From an uncultured Bacilli bacterium (GTDB lineage Bacteria > Bacillota_I > Bacilli_A > RF39 > UBA660), in NCBI GenBank assembly GCA_944329365.1, contig CALVIC010000005.1, positions 1 through 59,848 on the forward strand: a stretch of DNA of 59,848 nt, in the 5' to 3' direction. The notes beneath the pieces were generated by a model. It was not told where the DNA came from and searched no databases. It saw only the letters and a list, made by a program, of their open reading frames with translations. Each line of letters starts with the position of its first letter. The first letter of the stretch is position 1. The position numbers and the translations under genes are program-made. Shown here one piece after another: positions 23,109 through 51,404 of this stretch.

Positions 23109-24485
23109 ATGAGCCAAAGATTTAATACAAGACAAAGGAACTATATATTTTTAGGTCTATGTAGTATTCTTTTAGTAATAGCAGCCGGATATGCAGTATT
23201 TAGAACTCAGCTTAATATTAATGGAACAAGTAATATAACAAATGGGTTTAAAGTATTAATTACAGATATTCAAAGTAGGAATGTAATAGGAAGGGCAGAG
23301 AATGCCGAAGAGCCAAGTCATACAGAGACAACGGCGACATTTAAAACAAACTTGTATTTACCAGGAGATTCAATCACATATGATGTGACAGTAGAGAATC
23401 AAGGATCAATAGACGCAGTATTAAAAACAATCCAAAAGAGTGATAGTAATAATAATGCGATAATATCTGAGACAAGTGGGATACAAGAAGGAGAAGTATT
23501 AAAGGCAAGTGAAAGTACAGTATTTAGCGTAACAGTATCAAATAATGCGAGTACGACAAGTCAGCCAAGTAATATAACAAGTGACTTAGAAGTAACATTA
23601 AATTATGAACAATCAACAGGAGAAGAAGAGCCAACAGGTAATACTGCATTAATCGGAGGAAACACAGTTTCAGTAGCCGATAGTGGAGATGGATTATATG
23701 CAGATGAATATTCATCAGGAAGATATGTATATAGAGGAAGTAATCCAGATAACTATATAGAGTTTAATGGAGAGTTATGGAGAATAATATCAAAAGAGAC
23801 TAATGGAACATATAAGATACTCAGAAATGAAGTACTACCAGATCAAATGGCATTTGATAGTCGAGGAGCAAGAACAACAGGATATTGTTCAAATATGAGT
23901 TCATATGGATGTAACGCATGGAGTTCTACTGCAAATATGGTAGGAAGTCCAGCAGAGTTTGTGAATGGACCATATAGAGGAGAAGTAATAGATGATTCAA
24001 CATTAAATAAATATTTAAATGGAGACTATTATAATAGTATAAATGGAACATCACAAGGAATGATAGTAAGTACAGATTGGAATATCGGAGGAGTAGGCGG
24101 AGATGATAATGCCAATGGTGAACTATCATTGATGTTAGAAGAAGAGAAGTCATATAAATGGAATGGTAAAGTAGCATTAGCAAGTGCGAGTGATTATTTA
24201 GATGCAAATAGTAATCAAAGCTTGTGCAATAGTGTAATGTTACAATCAACAAATTTAGAGACATGTGTAACTACGAATTGGATGTATATTCCAGGAACGT
24301 ATTGGTGGCTTGTTTCGCCTTATGCTGACGACTCGTACGGTGTTTTTGGGGGGTTCAGCGATGGCTTTGTCGGCATCATCCTAGCGAGCCGTTCTTACAG
24401 CGTTCGTCCCGTCGTATATCTAACCTCTAGTCTCTCCTTAGGTGGAAGTGGAACAATAAGTGATCCATTTACGATAATGAATTAA
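23109..24485 (+). CDS. Surface protein: TasA/camelysin-like N-domain plus C-type-lectin-like C-domain; probable DGR target
   Basis: AGYA-VF leader, LPGDSITYDVTVENQGS, YVYRG..PDNYI.F.G.LWRII, YWWLVSP...VRPVVYL...GSGT.SDPF. Confidence 0.8.
   Translation: MSQRFNTRQRNYIFLGLCSILLVIAAGYAVFRTQLNINGTSNITNGFKVLITDIQSRNVIGRAENAEEPSHTETTATFKTNLYLPGDSITYDVTVENQGSIDAVLKTIQKSDSNNNAIISETSGIQEGEVLKASESTVFSVTVSNNASTTSQPSNITSDLEVTLNYEQSTGEEEPTGNTALIGGNTVSVADSGDGLYADEYSSGRYVYRGSNPDNYIEFNGELWRIISKETNGTYKILRNEVLPDQMAFDSRGARTTGYCSNMSSYGCNAWSSTANMVGSPAEFVNGPYRGEVIDDSTLNKYLNGDYYNSINGTSQGMIVSTDWNIGGVGGDDNANGELSLMLEEEKSYKWNGKVALASASDYLDANSNQSLCNSVMLQSTNLETCVTTNWMYIPGTYWWLVSPYADDSYGVFGGFSDGFVGIILASRSYSVRPVVYLTSSLSLGGSGTISDPFTIMN
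24300..24425 (+). other. Putative DGR variable region (VR)
   Basis: 24301-24420 has 15 A and 64 G+C in 120 nt inside an A-rich gene; NNC/NNT codons; ends in GTTCGTCCCGTC. Confidence 0.7.
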
Positions 24486-24553
24486 GAAAATGATGATTTT
24501 AATCGTTTTTTTATTTTCAAATATGTTATAATAACTAAAGAAAGGTTAGACTT

Positions 24554-48448: not shown

Positions 48449-48470
48449 TATATATTAGGAGTGAAGTAAC

Positions 48471-51404
48471 ATGCATAGAGAATATAAAAGAAGAAAAATA
48501 ATAATATTTTCTCTAATTGGAATTCTTTTTTTAATGGCCGTAGGGTATTCAGCATTCCAAACAAAATTAAATATATCAAGTACTAGTAATATAACAAGTG
48601 TCTGGGATGTTGAAATAACAAATGTTAAAATAAAAGAAATAAATGGCCTCGCTGAAAATGTAGGTGATTTAGATTCATATACAAACCTAGAAGCTAATAT
48701 GGAAGCTAACTTCTATGAACCAGGTGATTATATAACATATACAGTAACCGTATCAAATAAAGGAACATTAGATGCCATGTTAGATTCAGTTAAATTAAAT
48801 ATGCCCGAGCAAGAAGTAATAAACTTTAAAGTCGAAGGAGCAACATCAAAAGAGAAATTACCAGCAGGAAGTAGTAAAGATATCGACGTTACTATGGAAT
48901 ATACCGGAAATAATCCAGAAGATGTAGGAAGTGTGGAAGCTGATGTCAATTTAGATTATGTTCAAGATGGACATCCTACAGAATTTCCAGATGCCGATAG
49001 TCCAGAAGAAGATAATTTAAGAATAAACGATATTATATTAACTCCAACCGAAACAAGTGTGAAAGCAGAAATAGAAGCTGAAGGTGCGATAAAATATTAT
49101 TATTCTATAGATAATAATACATGGTATGAAAGCAGTGAAAACATATATAACATATATCATTTAAAACCAAATACAACATATACAATGTATGTAAAAGCCG
49201 AAGGAGATAATGGAAAAGTAGTCTATAGTAGTAAACCATTTACAACTTTAGATAATACATCTCCTAAAGTAAATATAAATATAGGTGATAATGTCAAAGG
49301 CGAAAATGGATGGTATAAAGGTCTTTCATTAAATACCGAAGTAACAGATAATGATAAAGTAAAAGAAGTATTATATTGTGTAGGAAAAGACTGCACGCCT
49401 AATAAAACATTAAATCTAGAAAATAACAAAGCTACTATAACTTTAGAAAGTAGTAAAGATGTACAAAAGTTATGTATAAAAGCAACAGATATGGTAGGCA
49501 ATGTTACAAATAAATGTAGTAATGAATATAAAGTAGATGGTGAATTACCAACATTATCTAATATGAATATTGAAACAAAAGATGATGTGATGGAAGTAAC
49601 CATAACTGCCACAGATAATGAAAGTGGGTTATATAAATATTACTATAGTAAAGATGGCGGGAAGACCTATATAGAAAGTGATAATCCAAACTATACATTT
49701 ACTGGTTTAGATGAAGGCGATTATTTAGTAACTGCATATGTAAAAGATAAAGCTGGAAATGAGAGTGAAATAAAAGCTCAATCAACAGCTATTAGATATA
49801 CCTCATATTGTAAGAAAAACAATATTGACGATTTTGGAGACTGTTTAATTGCGACTGAAGCTCAAAATCCAAATATTGAAGAAGCCAAAGCGATTATTGA
49901 AGCTAAAGGTACACCTGATTTTACAAAGACAAGTCCAAGTATTTTATATGATGAGAAACATGCAACAACGACAAGTACATGGTCAACAACAAGTACAAAT
50001 GTATACATCGGAACAGGATATGAATTTAATCCAGAAACAGGAATGTATACAATAACGGGAGGAAGCATGCGTAATCCAAATGAAATAGATTTAAATGATG
50101 GGAATACTTATTACATGAATGGAAGTACATGGATAAATGAAACTGCATCGTCAGTATATAGGATATCAAATATAAGTTCAACTACAAATAGTGAAACAGG
50201 AGCCGTTACGACAACGATTACATATTATAATTACACAATCATGCCAAAGAGTTATGACACTTCCACCGTTGGAATGTATGCAGCTAACGATGATGGTGAA
50301 AATACGTATTATTACCGTGGTTCAGTGACCAGTAATTATGTTAAGTTTGGCGGTTTTTACTGGAGGGCAATAAGAGTAAATGGTGACGGCACTGTAAGAC
50401 TTATATATGACGGAAAAAATCCCCATGCAAATGGTGAATCATCAAGTGATAGACAAATTGGGGCGCAGCCTTTTAATAATTATGAAAACGATAACACATA
50501 TGTTGGATATATGTATGCAAATCCAGATAATTATGTAGAAACAAATAGTGAGGATACAACTTTTAATAATACTGGATTATCTTCGACAGCAAAATATTAT
50601 TTTGGAACAAGTTATATATTAGATAAAAATAGTCGTAAGTATAAATTATCTGGAGATATAATACAAGGAACAATTGCACCTGATAAAGTTGGATATTATA
50701 CATGTTTCAGTACAAATAAAGATGCAACCTGTCAAAGACTTTTCTATACAACAAAATATAATTCATTAACGTCAATGACTGTAAGTGGGGTAGGATATGG
50801 AACGACAAGTAAAGAACAGTCACAAAGTAATGATACAGATAGTACCGTAAAAGCTTATTTAGATAAATGGTATCAAAATAATTTAAATAATTATACAGAT
50901 AAACTATCAAAAGATACGATATTTTGTAATAATAGAAGTATTTCAAATAAACAAAGTGGAGCATATACAAATGAGGGATTTGGAATACATCCAACAATAT
51001 ATGGAAATAAAAGATTTCAAAATTGGTCAAATCAAGGAATACTTGGACCAACATTAAATTGTCCATTAAATGATAGTTTTAGTGTAAGCAATATTAAAGG
51101 AAACGGAAAACTTACATATCCAGTTGGACTTATTACAGCAGATGAAGTAAATATGGCTGGAGGTATTAATGGTTCTGCAAATCGACTTTATTATTTATAC
51201 ACAGGAAGTAGCTATTGGACTATGTCACCATTCAAATTTGTTGATGTATTATATTCCACAGAAGGATATATAAATGAATTTGGTCAATTAAGAGATTTAG
51301 GGACTTCAATATCACTTTTTATCCGTCCCGTAATCAATATTGACCCAAGTAAAATAGACTTTTCAGGAAATGGAACGATGTCTGATCCATATGTCATATC
51401 ATAG
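48471..51404 (+). CDS. Large surface protein: TasA-like N-domain, FN3/Ig-like repeats, C-type-lectin-like C-domain
   Basis: VGYS-AF leader, EPGDYITYTVTVSNKGT, LKPNTTY, D.AGN repeats, YYYRG...NYV.FGG..WR, YWTMSP...IRPVINI...GNGT.SDPY. Confidence 0.82.
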   Translation: MHREYKRRKIIIFSLIGILFLMAVGYSAFQTKLNISSTSNITSVWDVEITNVKIKEINGLAENVGDLDSYTNLEANMEANFYEPGDYITYTVTVSNKGTLDAMLDSVKLNMPEQEVINFKVEGATSKEKLPAGSSKDIDVTMEYTGNNPEDVGSVEADVNLDYVQDGHPTEFPDADSPEEDNLRINDIILTPTETSVKAEIEAEGAIKYYYSIDNNTWYESSENIYNIYHLKPNTTYTMYVKAEGDNGKVVYSSKPFTTLDNTSPKVNINIGDNVKGENGWYKGLSLNTEVTDNDKVKEVLYCVGKDCTPNKTLNLENNKATITLESSKDVQKLCIKATDMVGNVTNKCSNEYKVDGELPTLSNMNIETKDDVMEVTITATDNESGLYKYYYSKDGGKTYIESDNPNYTFTGLDEGDYLVTAYVKDKAGNESEIKAQSTAIRYTSYCKKNNIDDFGDCLIATEAQNPNIEEAKAIIEAKGTPDFTKTSPSILYDEKHATTTSTWSTTSTNVYIGTGYEFNPETGMYTITGGSMRNPNEIDLNDGNTYYMNGSTWINETASSVYRISNISSTTNSETGAVTTTITYYNYTIMPKSYDTSTVGMYAANDDGENTYYYRGSVTSNYVKFGGFYWRAIRVNGDGTVRLIYDGKNPHANGESSSDRQIGAQPFNNYENDNTYVGYMYANPDNYVETNSEDTTFNNTGLSSTAKYYFGTSYILDKNSRKYKLSGDIIQGTIAPDKVGYYTCFSTNKDATCQRLFYTTKYNSLTSMTVSGVGYGTTSKEQSQSNDTDSTVKAYLDKWYQNNLNNYTDKLSKDTIFCNNRSISNKQSGAYTNEGFGIHPTIYGNKRFQNWSNQGILGPTLNCPLNDSFSVSNIKGNGKLTYPVGLITADEVNMAGGINGSANRLYYLYTGSSYWTMSPFKFVDVLYSTEGYINEFGQLRDLGTSISLFIRPVINIDPSKIDFSGNGTMSDPYVIS

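Follow-up and report, generated by a model that had tools for sequence, protein, structure and literature searches.

Introduction

Fibres of the TasA superfamily are known mainly as scaffolds of the biofilm matrix. Here, we analysed two genes, at 23109-24485 and 48471-51404, on a 59,848-nucleotide stretch of DNA from an uncultured Bacilli bacterium (GTDB lineage Bacillota_I, Bacilli_A, RF39, UBA660; assembly GCA_944329365.1, contig CALVIC010000005.1, positions 1 to 59,848 of the forward strand; hereafter "the window"). It corresponds to contig C5 in a 57-contig genome of 1.30 Mb with 30% G+C and 93.6% completeness, and other contigs of this genome are numbered in the same way. With moderate confidence, we favour the reading that both gene products are adhesin-bearing subunits of a surface fibre of the AbpX type (TasA superfamily), the machinery of which is encoded elsewhere in the genome.

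The closest described systems are fibres in which a strand from one subunit completes the fold of another. In TasA, residues 28-38 serve as the donor strand; they are the eleven that follow the SipW site (PMC9674648). The haloarchaeal Tafi have the subunits TafA/C/E, the peptidase TafD and the DUF5305 protein TafG, and an order of tip, adapter, shaft and anchor has been proposed for them (PMC11821415). AbpX comes from Pyrodictium abyssi; it has an acidic residue at donor-strand position 4 and calcium-bridged complementation. AbpX-type loci are described with a ten-transmembrane (TM) signal peptidase I, DUF5305, minor subunits, tip proteins, LPXTG or SLH wall anchors, and diguanylate cyclases in Bacillota (bioRxiv 10.64898/2026.01.04.697558). 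As far as the sources consulted go, this 2026 preprint is the only description of an AbpX-type operon with a fused peptidase, and its tip proteins are encoded within the operon.

The head domain has a different background. DUF6273 is the N-terminal domain of the Thomasclavelia ramosa IgA peptidase (PDB 9qa6; PMC12402451), and it occurs in phage "tentaclin"/Mtd-like targets of diversity-generating retroelements (DGRs; PMC10743442).

Results

Architecture of the short and the long protein

The two genes and the parts of their products are as follows.

23109-24485, forward strand: short gene, an open reading frame (ORF) of 458 aa.
23109..23195, forward strand: leader of the short protein (residues 1-29), with a basic N-terminal end, a hydrophobic helix, and G-Y-A at -3 to -1 of the putative cleavage site.
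23196..23249, forward strand: putative donor strand of the short protein (residues 30-47, VFRTQLNINGTSNITNGF), conserved and unstructured in the models.
23250..23618, forward strand: subunit (putative acceptor) domain of the short protein (residues 48-170), a predicted seven-stranded Ig-like beta-sandwich with a DUF11-type PGDxxTYxVTVxNxG motif.
23643..24482, forward strand: head of the short protein (residues 179-458), DUF6273, weakly C-type-lectin-like, with 4 Cys.
48471-51404, forward strand: long gene, an ORF of 977 aa.
48471..48971, forward strand: leader (residues 1-27), putative donor strand (residues 28-45, AFQTKLNISSTSNITSVW) and subunit domain (residues 46-167) of the long protein.
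48972..50240, forward strand: stalk of the long protein (residues 168-590), with Ig/FN3-like modules.
50241..51401, forward strand: enlarged, divergent head of the long protein (residues 591-977), recognised by profile searches and short motif blocks.

A first-pass annotation of the window, made from the sequence alone, had proposed that the two proteins share a leader and an N-terminal domain (N-domain) of ~150 aa. This is borne out, with a domain of ~140 aa. The N-terminal parts have 59/163 identities (36%, E 3e-24; BLASTP, residues 8-168 vs 6-165), and the family alignment A2 matched the long protein with 99.8% probability over 165 columns (E 2.7e-30; hhalign).

The same annotation had assigned one lectin-like C-terminal domain to both proteins, a claim that stands in part. 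The short-protein head matches Pfam DUF6273 (PF19789, 34.7 bits vs a cut-off of 23.5), and its fold agrees with that of a solved DUF6273 member in an AlphaFold model of the protein with a mean predicted local distance difference test (pLDDT) score of 91.6. Its resemblance to C-type lectins is weak. The 387-aa head of the long protein had no Pfam match, even at E 10, which argues for a divergent, enlarged version rather than strictly the same domain. The kinship of the heads is drawn from BLASTP blocks and jackhmmer, because hhalign of A2 against the long protein reported an alignment for the N-domain alone and none for the head. Head-to-head BLASTP aligned only short blocks (17/45, E 2e-5, and 21/65, E 1e-4), which carry the motifs Y.YRG..NY..F....WR, YW..SP, RPV and G.GT.SDP, and a jackhmmer profile seeded with either head retrieved the other within the genome.

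FN3/Ig-like spacers had been predicted for the long protein. The stalk has a Y_Y_Y/Big_13/PKD-like module at residues 370-437 and a weak fn3/Big_10 signal at residues 206-300, with no module assigned to residues 440-590. Y_Y_Y at residues 382-434 was barely above its cut-off (27.7-29.3 bits vs 26.6), and the Big_13, PKD and fn3 matches of the stalk were all under their Pfam cut-offs.

A SipW-type peptidase locus on another contig

Pfam searches of the window proteins (36 ORFs, plus 17 ORFs in a second run) found no S26-type signal peptidase, in agreement with the earlier statement that the window has no sipW. Such a peptidase is encoded elsewhere. Model TIGR02228 (archaeal/ER-type signal peptidase I, SipW type) was above its cut-off once in the whole genome (C24:9241-9627, 106.9 bits, cut-off 51.85), and a second match, on C6, was below it. 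The locus on C24 contains the following genes.

C24:8479-9642: SipW-type peptidase ORF, 387 aa (TIGR02228, 103.5 bits, cut-off 51.85).
C24:9658-10749: DUF5305 gene (PF17231, 69.1 bits, cut-off 29), directly downstream of the peptidase.
C24:11200-12195: gene for a prepilin-type N-terminus (KGFTLxE) with a head-like domain, just downstream of the DUF5305 gene.

Directly upstream of the peptidase are three tandem small-subunit genes, encoding proteins of 188, 174 and 169 aa with only the leader and the N-domain. The peptidase ORF carries the motifs SGSMSP, VHR and GDHN. Its catalytic domain follows a multi-span N-terminal part of ~250 aa, with about 9-10 hydrophobic segments in the first 275 residues by a crude hydropathy scan. 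Farther on C24 there is a GGDEF gene and then, 6 kb on, a fourth small subunit; a sortase gene lies at the start of the contig.

The small-subunit alignment was used to gather 78 related loci from other genomes. A fused peptidase was present in 43/78, and its membrane part was retained in all of them (43/43). DUF5305 was found in 40/78, and the loci had 1-9 small-subunit genes each. Judged by gene content, the layout on C24 appears to be that of the AbpX-type branch of the TasA superfamily.

The N-terminal strand and the subunit domain

The leader pattern (K/R-rich, hydrophobic, GY[AS], [AV]F..L.I..TSNIT) was found in both window proteins; in all, 20 family ORFs of the genome have it. If cleavage is assumed after GY[AS], the mature proteins start with [AV]-F, with F at position 2 in 20/20 leaders. 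Further conserved residues of the strand in these 20 leaders are L6, I8, A/S12, I14 and W/F18, and in the short protein the hydrophobic residues fall on the even positions 2, 6, 8, 14 and 18. The segment is among the best conserved of the family: alignment A1 has ten invariant columns, two of them in the strand (L31 and W43), next to the near-invariant I33 and A37, and all four positions are invariant or at least 90% conserved. Both AlphaFold monomer models show the segment as low-confidence coil, with pLDDT <50 at residues 36-43 of the short protein and 58-61 in the other model. Unfolded yet conserved, the segment is as expected of a strand meant for another chain. The first-pass annotation had named a self-complete Ig fold as evidence against a fibre subunit. 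Instead, the N-domain was modelled with the conserved N-terminal strand left out, and it is therefore not self-complemented in the models. The mature proteins are predicted to be acidic: the four C24 subunits have isoelectric points (pI) of 4.05-4.17, and the two window proteins have 4.23 and 4.57.

When 60 small subunits were combined into a profile, its best solved relative was AbpX (9sj2_C, E 0.0017, 21.7 bits; 9rhp_A, E 0.014). The alignment begins in the N-terminal strand and extends through the PG..V..T.T.EN.GT.PA motif. AbpX was the sole solved protein reached by the family profile, and the TasA chains in PDB had E 0.45-0.54. The PGD...N.G motif had been put forward as a hallmark of TasA/CalY; it turned out to be a generic DUF11 motif, as TIGR01451 (DUF11-type) was matched by 52/60 family members vs 2/60 for the TasA model NF046066, both below cut-off. 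Models of SipW substrates matched the small subunits only below threshold (TIGR04090 6/60, TIGR04089 3/60, TasA 2/60), and the short window protein matched TIGR04090 (BsaA) at E 0.0028 with 17.4 bits, the cut-off being 60. Neither of the TasA/camelysin models NF046066 and TIGR04090 was matched above cut-off by the short window protein or by the 60 small subunits. The earlier assignment as fibre subunits is probably right, as backed by the peptidase/DUF5305 locus and its synteny, with AbpX rather than TasA/CalY as the nearest solved relative.

Comparison of the N-domain fold, which the first-pass annotation had proposed against TasA/CalY, gave generic Ig folds only, whether by Foldseek against PDB, wide VIA-align, or VIA-align of the Foldseek top 1000. 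Foldseek returned nothing at E <= 0.001, with a non-significant PapGII pilin domain as the top row (E 6.8e-3), and AbpX and TasA were absent among the 50 structural matches listed. We take the modelled fold, a generic Ig-like sandwich, to be uninformative on kinship with TasA, AbpX, AbpA or Tafi.

A complex was also predicted between the mature small subunit and residues 30-178 of the short protein, in three runs with three controls. The median complex score (ipSAE) was 0.47 (runs 0.61, 0.47 and 0.26), and the best of the 3 controls had 0.00. The pLDDT of the partner was 80 or higher, and agreement between runs extended to at least 86% of the contacts. In the calibration, the score mark was reached by 58/80 solved complexes and 2/110 mismatched pairs; scores at the mark and up to 0.60 were seen in only 7 of the 80 solved complexes and in both mismatches.

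Several points weigh against an AbpX-type fibre. The sequence match to AbpX is weak (21.7 bits), and the acidic residue at strand position 4 is missing, with Q/S/T/N in 20/20 leaders. The predicted subunit-subunit complex backs fibre assembly only weakly: the multimer modelling that had been suggested for donor-strand exchange separated the pair from its controls, but showed no interface, and strand insertion itself was not seen. Leader cleavage after GYA is proposed by analogy, and both AlphaFold models extend a helix through this motif (H4-26; H7-35 in the short protein). The window genes are 25 kb apart in housekeeping surroundings, and because the peptidase lies on another contig, their link to the C24 locus is drawn from the shared leader and N-domain. 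Finally, homologues are named only "DUF11 domain-containing" or hypothetical. On this evidence, membership of the family in the TasA superfamily is probable rather than demonstrated.

Some of the same observations would suit monomeric adhesins, held in the membrane by an uncleaved signal-anchor, with the N-domain as an Ig-like stalk base, the small paralogues as separate surface proteins, and no fibre at all. This would fit the continuous helix across GYA in both models, a generic Ig-like sandwich with no specific fibre-subunit match, the lack of a peptidase next to the window genes, and the weak support from complex prediction. It leaves unexplained why tandem leader-plus-domain genes precede a SipW-type peptidase and DUF5305 (40-43/78 loci), why positions -3 and -1 are invariably G and A, and why the segment after the helix is conserved with a hydrophobic pattern at every second residue. 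Nor does it account for variants with the strand and without the domain, or with the domain and a wall-sorting signal and without the strand. We consider monomeric adhesins unlikely, with a probability that is not negligible.

A family of paralogues and a possible fibre

When the short protein was used to search the whole genome, 35 matches were returned. The paralogue census that the first-pass annotation had called for, carried out with jackhmmer over 2122 ORFs (>=60 aa), found 32 family ORFs, of the following types.

5 ORFs: leader and N-domain only, small (four on C24, and C9_11948).
6 ORFs: N-domain and DUF6273 head, about 420-477 aa (including the short gene of the window).
3 ORFs: N-domain and DUF285/BspA-type leucine-rich repeat (LRR) head.
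4 ORFs: long forms (the 977-aa window gene, two 5'-truncated copies at contig ends, and a 1321-aa protein).
4 ORFs: leader and strand segment straight into the head, without the N-domain.
2 ORFs: prepilin-type N-terminus and head.
2 ORFs: ordinary signal peptide and head, one of them ending in VPSTSAY, a TM segment and KKKK.
C10:39308-39964 (C10_39308): 218 aa, ordinary (Sec) signal peptide, N-domain without the strand segment, VPATSA, TM helix and basic tail (KR).
5 ORFs: fragments of broken copies.

The 1321-aa protein has the same leader and N-domain, followed by Flg_new, six DUF285 stretches, fn3 and DUF6273. Together, 28 family ORFs take up 2.9% of the genome, with a total of 12,436 aa. 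Sortases were matched five times in the genome, including once on C24. Signals similar to those above (VPxT[GSA]) were also seen on C1_89466, C2_87823 and C7_7096.

The fusion of a prepilin-type N-terminus to the head suggests that the head family is also displayed on type IV pilin-like scaffolds. A prepilin-type head gene is likewise found downstream of DUF5305 in four relatives (loci L027, L028, L029 and L096), and a prepilin peptidase is present at C2:24368.

N-domain matches were found in 24/24 sampled genomes of the same genus, with 4-65 per genome, and in 0/16 sampled genomes from other families of the order or class. More distant gut metagenome-assembled genomes (MAGs) labelled Bacilli, Tenericutes, Erysipelotrichaceae and others carry the locus, and the closest named record for a small subunit is from a Candidatus Coprosoma intestinipullorum MAG (93% identity). 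Searched against 1.84 billion cluster representatives with phmmer, the short protein matched 3949 proteins at E <= 0.001 and 343 at E <= 1e-30; among the 150 matches listed, 32 covered the whole architecture.

From these parts we infer how an AbpX-type fibre might be assembled. The polytopic SipW-type peptidase of C24, with its DUF5305 partner, would cut the basic-hydrophobic leader after G-Y-A and release the amphipathic N-terminal strand AF..L.I.G.[AS].I...W. The released strand would then insert into the Ig-like domain of the neighbouring subunit (donor-strand complementation). The five small head-less paralogues would form the shaft, into which the head-bearing proteins would be incorporated, and one kind of surface fibre would probably carry many different adhesins. 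The heads, DUF6273 lectin-like or, in sister proteins, BspA-type LRR, may bind host, dietary or microbial ligands, and would be displayed at 0 or ~420 stalk residues in the short and the long protein, respectively. With an acceptor domain, no strand and a sortase-type signal, C10_39308 is a candidate wall-anchored base. The four strand-plus-head proteins without an acceptor domain are candidate distal caps. Together, the strand-only caps and the strand-less base suggest a polar fibre with exchangeable tips.

Origin of head diversity

The first-pass annotation had further proposed that the heads are diversified by a DGR, as are phage DUF6273 and C-type-lectin targets. There were grounds for this. 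DUF6273 domains are DGR targets in gut phages (PMC10743442), and the single reverse transcriptase of the genome is DGR-type by its neighbourhood, with a small Avd-like ORF upstream (C19:235-1985, at the contig end; the reverse transcriptase with its Avd-like ORF was also delimited as C19:664-1985). The closest paralogue pair, the short gene and C3_43566, differs mainly in two head patches: the genes are 93-100% identical in most 60-nt intervals, except at nt ~841-1020 (48-78%) and nt ~1201-1380 (57-77%). In addition, an assembly in 57 contigs could have lost a template repeat at a contig break.

The remaining evidence speaks against a DGR. The sole reverse transcriptase lies at a contig end and is interrupted by a frameshift, which leaves pieces of 236 + 150 aa. 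In the Pfam searches, neither a reverse transcriptase nor an Avd gene turned up in the window. Apart from their paralogue matches, the window genes had no repeats in the genome. When the whole genome was compared with itself by BLAST, only 1 of 2475 rows was a candidate A/T-biased repeat pair, and it was rejected as a poly-T artefact at the ends of C7 and C33. An adenine-tolerant 30-mer scan of 2.2 kb around the reverse transcriptase found at first only an 80-nt repeat shared by contig ends. With that repeat excluded, it left one 36-nt T-rich match to window 6357-6390 (reverse strand), which was dismissed, as it did not extend and was at chance level in an AT-rich genome. No pair of template and variable repeats was found in the assembly, and the paralogue differences were not adenine-specific, as the variable patches have changes at each of the four bases, and also a 6-nt indel. 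The best-matching paralogue also shifts along the short gene, among C23, C17, C3, C20 and C34, and the 3' end of the gene is 87% identical to C9. Patchwise divergence with a changing best paralogue is a signature of segmental exchange, not of mutagenic retrohoming. Head diversity appears to come from gene duplication and segmental exchange among about 30 mosaic paralogues, with no DGR involved, and we regard DGR diversification as very improbable. This corrects the idea that DUF6273-type heads imply a DGR. Both variable head patches (window 23950-24480) look clearly more G+C-rich than the 30% of the genome.

The association of DUF6273 with phages could also mean that the two genes are remnants of prophage receptor-binding proteins rather than cellular adhesins. 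The domain is common in phage tail proteins, and 6 of the 23 matches of the short protein in a viral structure library (E <= 0.001) were named DUF6273 phage proteins. Against this, the best solved match is a domain of a cellular enzyme, both genes are surrounded by housekeeping genes and no phage genes, their bacterial export leader is shared with the subunits of the peptidase locus, and the family occurs in 24/24 congeners. A prophage origin is the least probable of all the explanations considered here.

A promoter-like element with a G-tract spacer

A conserved promoter-like element precedes six family genes: both window genes, the gene at window 128-760, and genes on C9, C15 and C18, with spacers of 15-18 nt.

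23047..23108, forward strand: element before the short gene, with TTGATT, an 18-nt spacer with GGGGGTGGGGG, TG-TACAAT, the palindrome TGTACAATGGAATTGTACA and a ribosome-binding site.
48408..48470, forward strand: the same element before the long gene, with a 17-nt spacer with GGGAGGGGGG.
Other copies: window 69-127, C9:46536, C15:32080 and C18:12657.

Its consensus is TTGATT, a largely G-run spacer, TG-TACAAT, and the perfect palindrome TGTACAATGRAATTGTACA overlapping the -10 region. Across 13 distinct copies from this genome and two congeners, the spacers were 15-20 nt long and varied by G5-G12 or (TG)n. The element has the anatomy of a slippage-controlled promoter and is a candidate phase-variable promoter and operator. 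Contigs of four sequencing runs had +G, +GG or +GGGG at 48418-48422, a position to which paralogous promoters can also map; the read data of all four runs were assembled contigs, and the tract differences are seen at contig level only. Metatranscriptome contigs of two runs covered 17/30 and 30/30 bins, a coverage that does not show transcription.

On a wider reading, the family would be an adhesin-variation system, in which a wall base and a few shaft subunits accept any of at least about 20 interchangeable head subunits or caps, G-tract slippage switches expression, and gene conversion reshuffles the heads. We put this forward as a tentative possibility. If true, it would be a Gram-positive, chaperone-free counterpart of tip-adhesin pili and of mycoplasma-style variable surface families, with the same heads also on type IV pilin-like and sortase-anchored scaffolds.

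A membrane protein paired with long adhesins

The first-pass annotation had pointed to a TM protein next to the long gene as a possible anchor or accessory. The pairing recurs in the genome.

51418..52053, forward strand: single-pass membrane protein of 211 aa with one TM segment, 13 nt after the stop of the long gene.
69..760, forward strand: apparent adhesin-less derivative, the promoter-like element and a 210-aa gene (128-760); the gene shares its first 38 nt, without differences, with the long adhesin gene, and the remainder is a homologue of the membrane protein.

The membrane protein matched no Pfam or NCBIfam family above cut-off, and its protein atlas matches were only hypothetical, unnamed Bacillota clusters. 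On C29 and C6, a homologue likewise directly follows the long paralogue, so that the pairing is seen in three paralogous loci, and a role specific to long adhesins is therefore likely. The gene at window 128-760 looks like a deletion derivative of an adhesin/membrane-protein pair. Joints from 48366/48508 to 51527, seen in one DNA run, match the arrangement of this paralogue. A metatranscriptome contig at 51366-51714 spans the adhesin stop and the start of the next gene; with 30 differences, it may be from a paralogue or another strain.

Genomic context

The 28-kb span that includes both genes is not a single locus, but contains two dispersed family members among ordinary chromosomal genes. Neighbouring genes in the window encode RNase HII, class I tRNA ligases, LepA, ThyA, DHFR, a CopA-type ATPase and FtsW, and further ones encode pyruvate kinase, GH31, GH3, sporulation proteins and pilin-like proteins. 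Most sequencing runs containing the window stretch were labelled chicken gut metagenomes.

Other features of the window and the assembly were recorded in passing. Pyruvate kinase is encoded by two full-length genes (2172-3581 and 43020-44432), despite a genome of 1.3 Mb. Prepilin-type N-methylation motifs (PF07963) were found in three small genes (7017-7412, 29906-30376 and 30486-30950); the latter two are in tandem, within 23109..51404, and are followed by a 147-aa ORF (31023-31466). The GC skew of the window is strongest (+0.25) in the stretch at 22-24 kb. A near-identical sequence of 75-88 nt is present at seven contig ends, at the starts (~80 nt) of C19, C2, C57, C13 and C18 and at the ends of C55 and C41, and is some repeated element breaking the assembly.

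Discussion

What is new here is a subunit module fused to many heads, with tens of scattered mosaic copies in a tiny genome, some of them behind G-tract promoters. New, too, are the candidate strand-only caps and the candidate base with a sortase-type signal and no strand. The module may act as a universal connector by which many binding heads are mounted on a fibre, and it is expanded in all sampled genomes of this uncultured chicken-gut genus. If true, this would be a simple, chaperone-free route to adhesive fibres with exchangeable tips in Gram-positive-type cells. It would also hint at how very small gut Bacilli attach to host or particles, and it would mean that DUF6273, a domain known otherwise in phage receptor-binding proteins and an IgA protease, has a cellular function.

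The TasA/TapA/SipW system of B. subtilis is alike in that a SipW-type peptidase removes the leader and the mature N-terminus completes the next subunit (PMC9674648). For TapA, the prediction is that it donates a strand while not itself belonging to the shaft (PMC9674648); the strand-plus-head proteins described here can be compared with it. In contrast, the available part of that description gives TasA a larger jelly-roll with helices and no adhesin head, and SipW no polytopic extension. Tafi also combine a signal peptidase and a DUF5305 protein with two or three subunits of 150-200 aa that are joined by strand exchange (PMC11821415). They are archaeal and Tat-exported, and the portion of the source at hand describes neither lectin-type heads nor a multigene expansion for them (PMC11821415).

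Among these systems, AbpX loci have the most in common with the present family, as far as the preprint text at hand describes them. In both, the subunits are small and acidic (pI about 4), and a long leader precedes an amphipathic strand with an aromatic residue at position 2. Both have a TIGR02228 peptidase with a membrane domain, apparently of many helices here, together with DUF5305, minor or tip subunits and wall-anchored members (candidates here), and a nearby GGDEF gene. The sequence similarity to AbpX is nevertheless marginal and without a structural match. The family here lacks the acidic position 4, and the calcium-bridged complementation described for AbpX may not apply. Its module is fused to large lectin-like or LRR heads, and about 20-65 copies are spread over a 1-1.5-Mb genome, mostly far from the machinery. 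As for the heads, DUF6273 relatives are placed on a protease or a phage tail in the source texts available; here, DUF6273 is C-terminal on a fibre-subunit module, with no link to a DGR.

The tip adhesins FimH and PapG of chaperone-usher pili, in which a lectin head is fused to a pilin domain that enters the fibre through strand complementation, follow the logic proposed here for the window proteins. The window proteins have the reverse domain order, with a C-terminal head and, on the same chain, a putative donor strand at the N-terminus; no chaperone or usher is involved, and their envelope is of the Gram-positive type.

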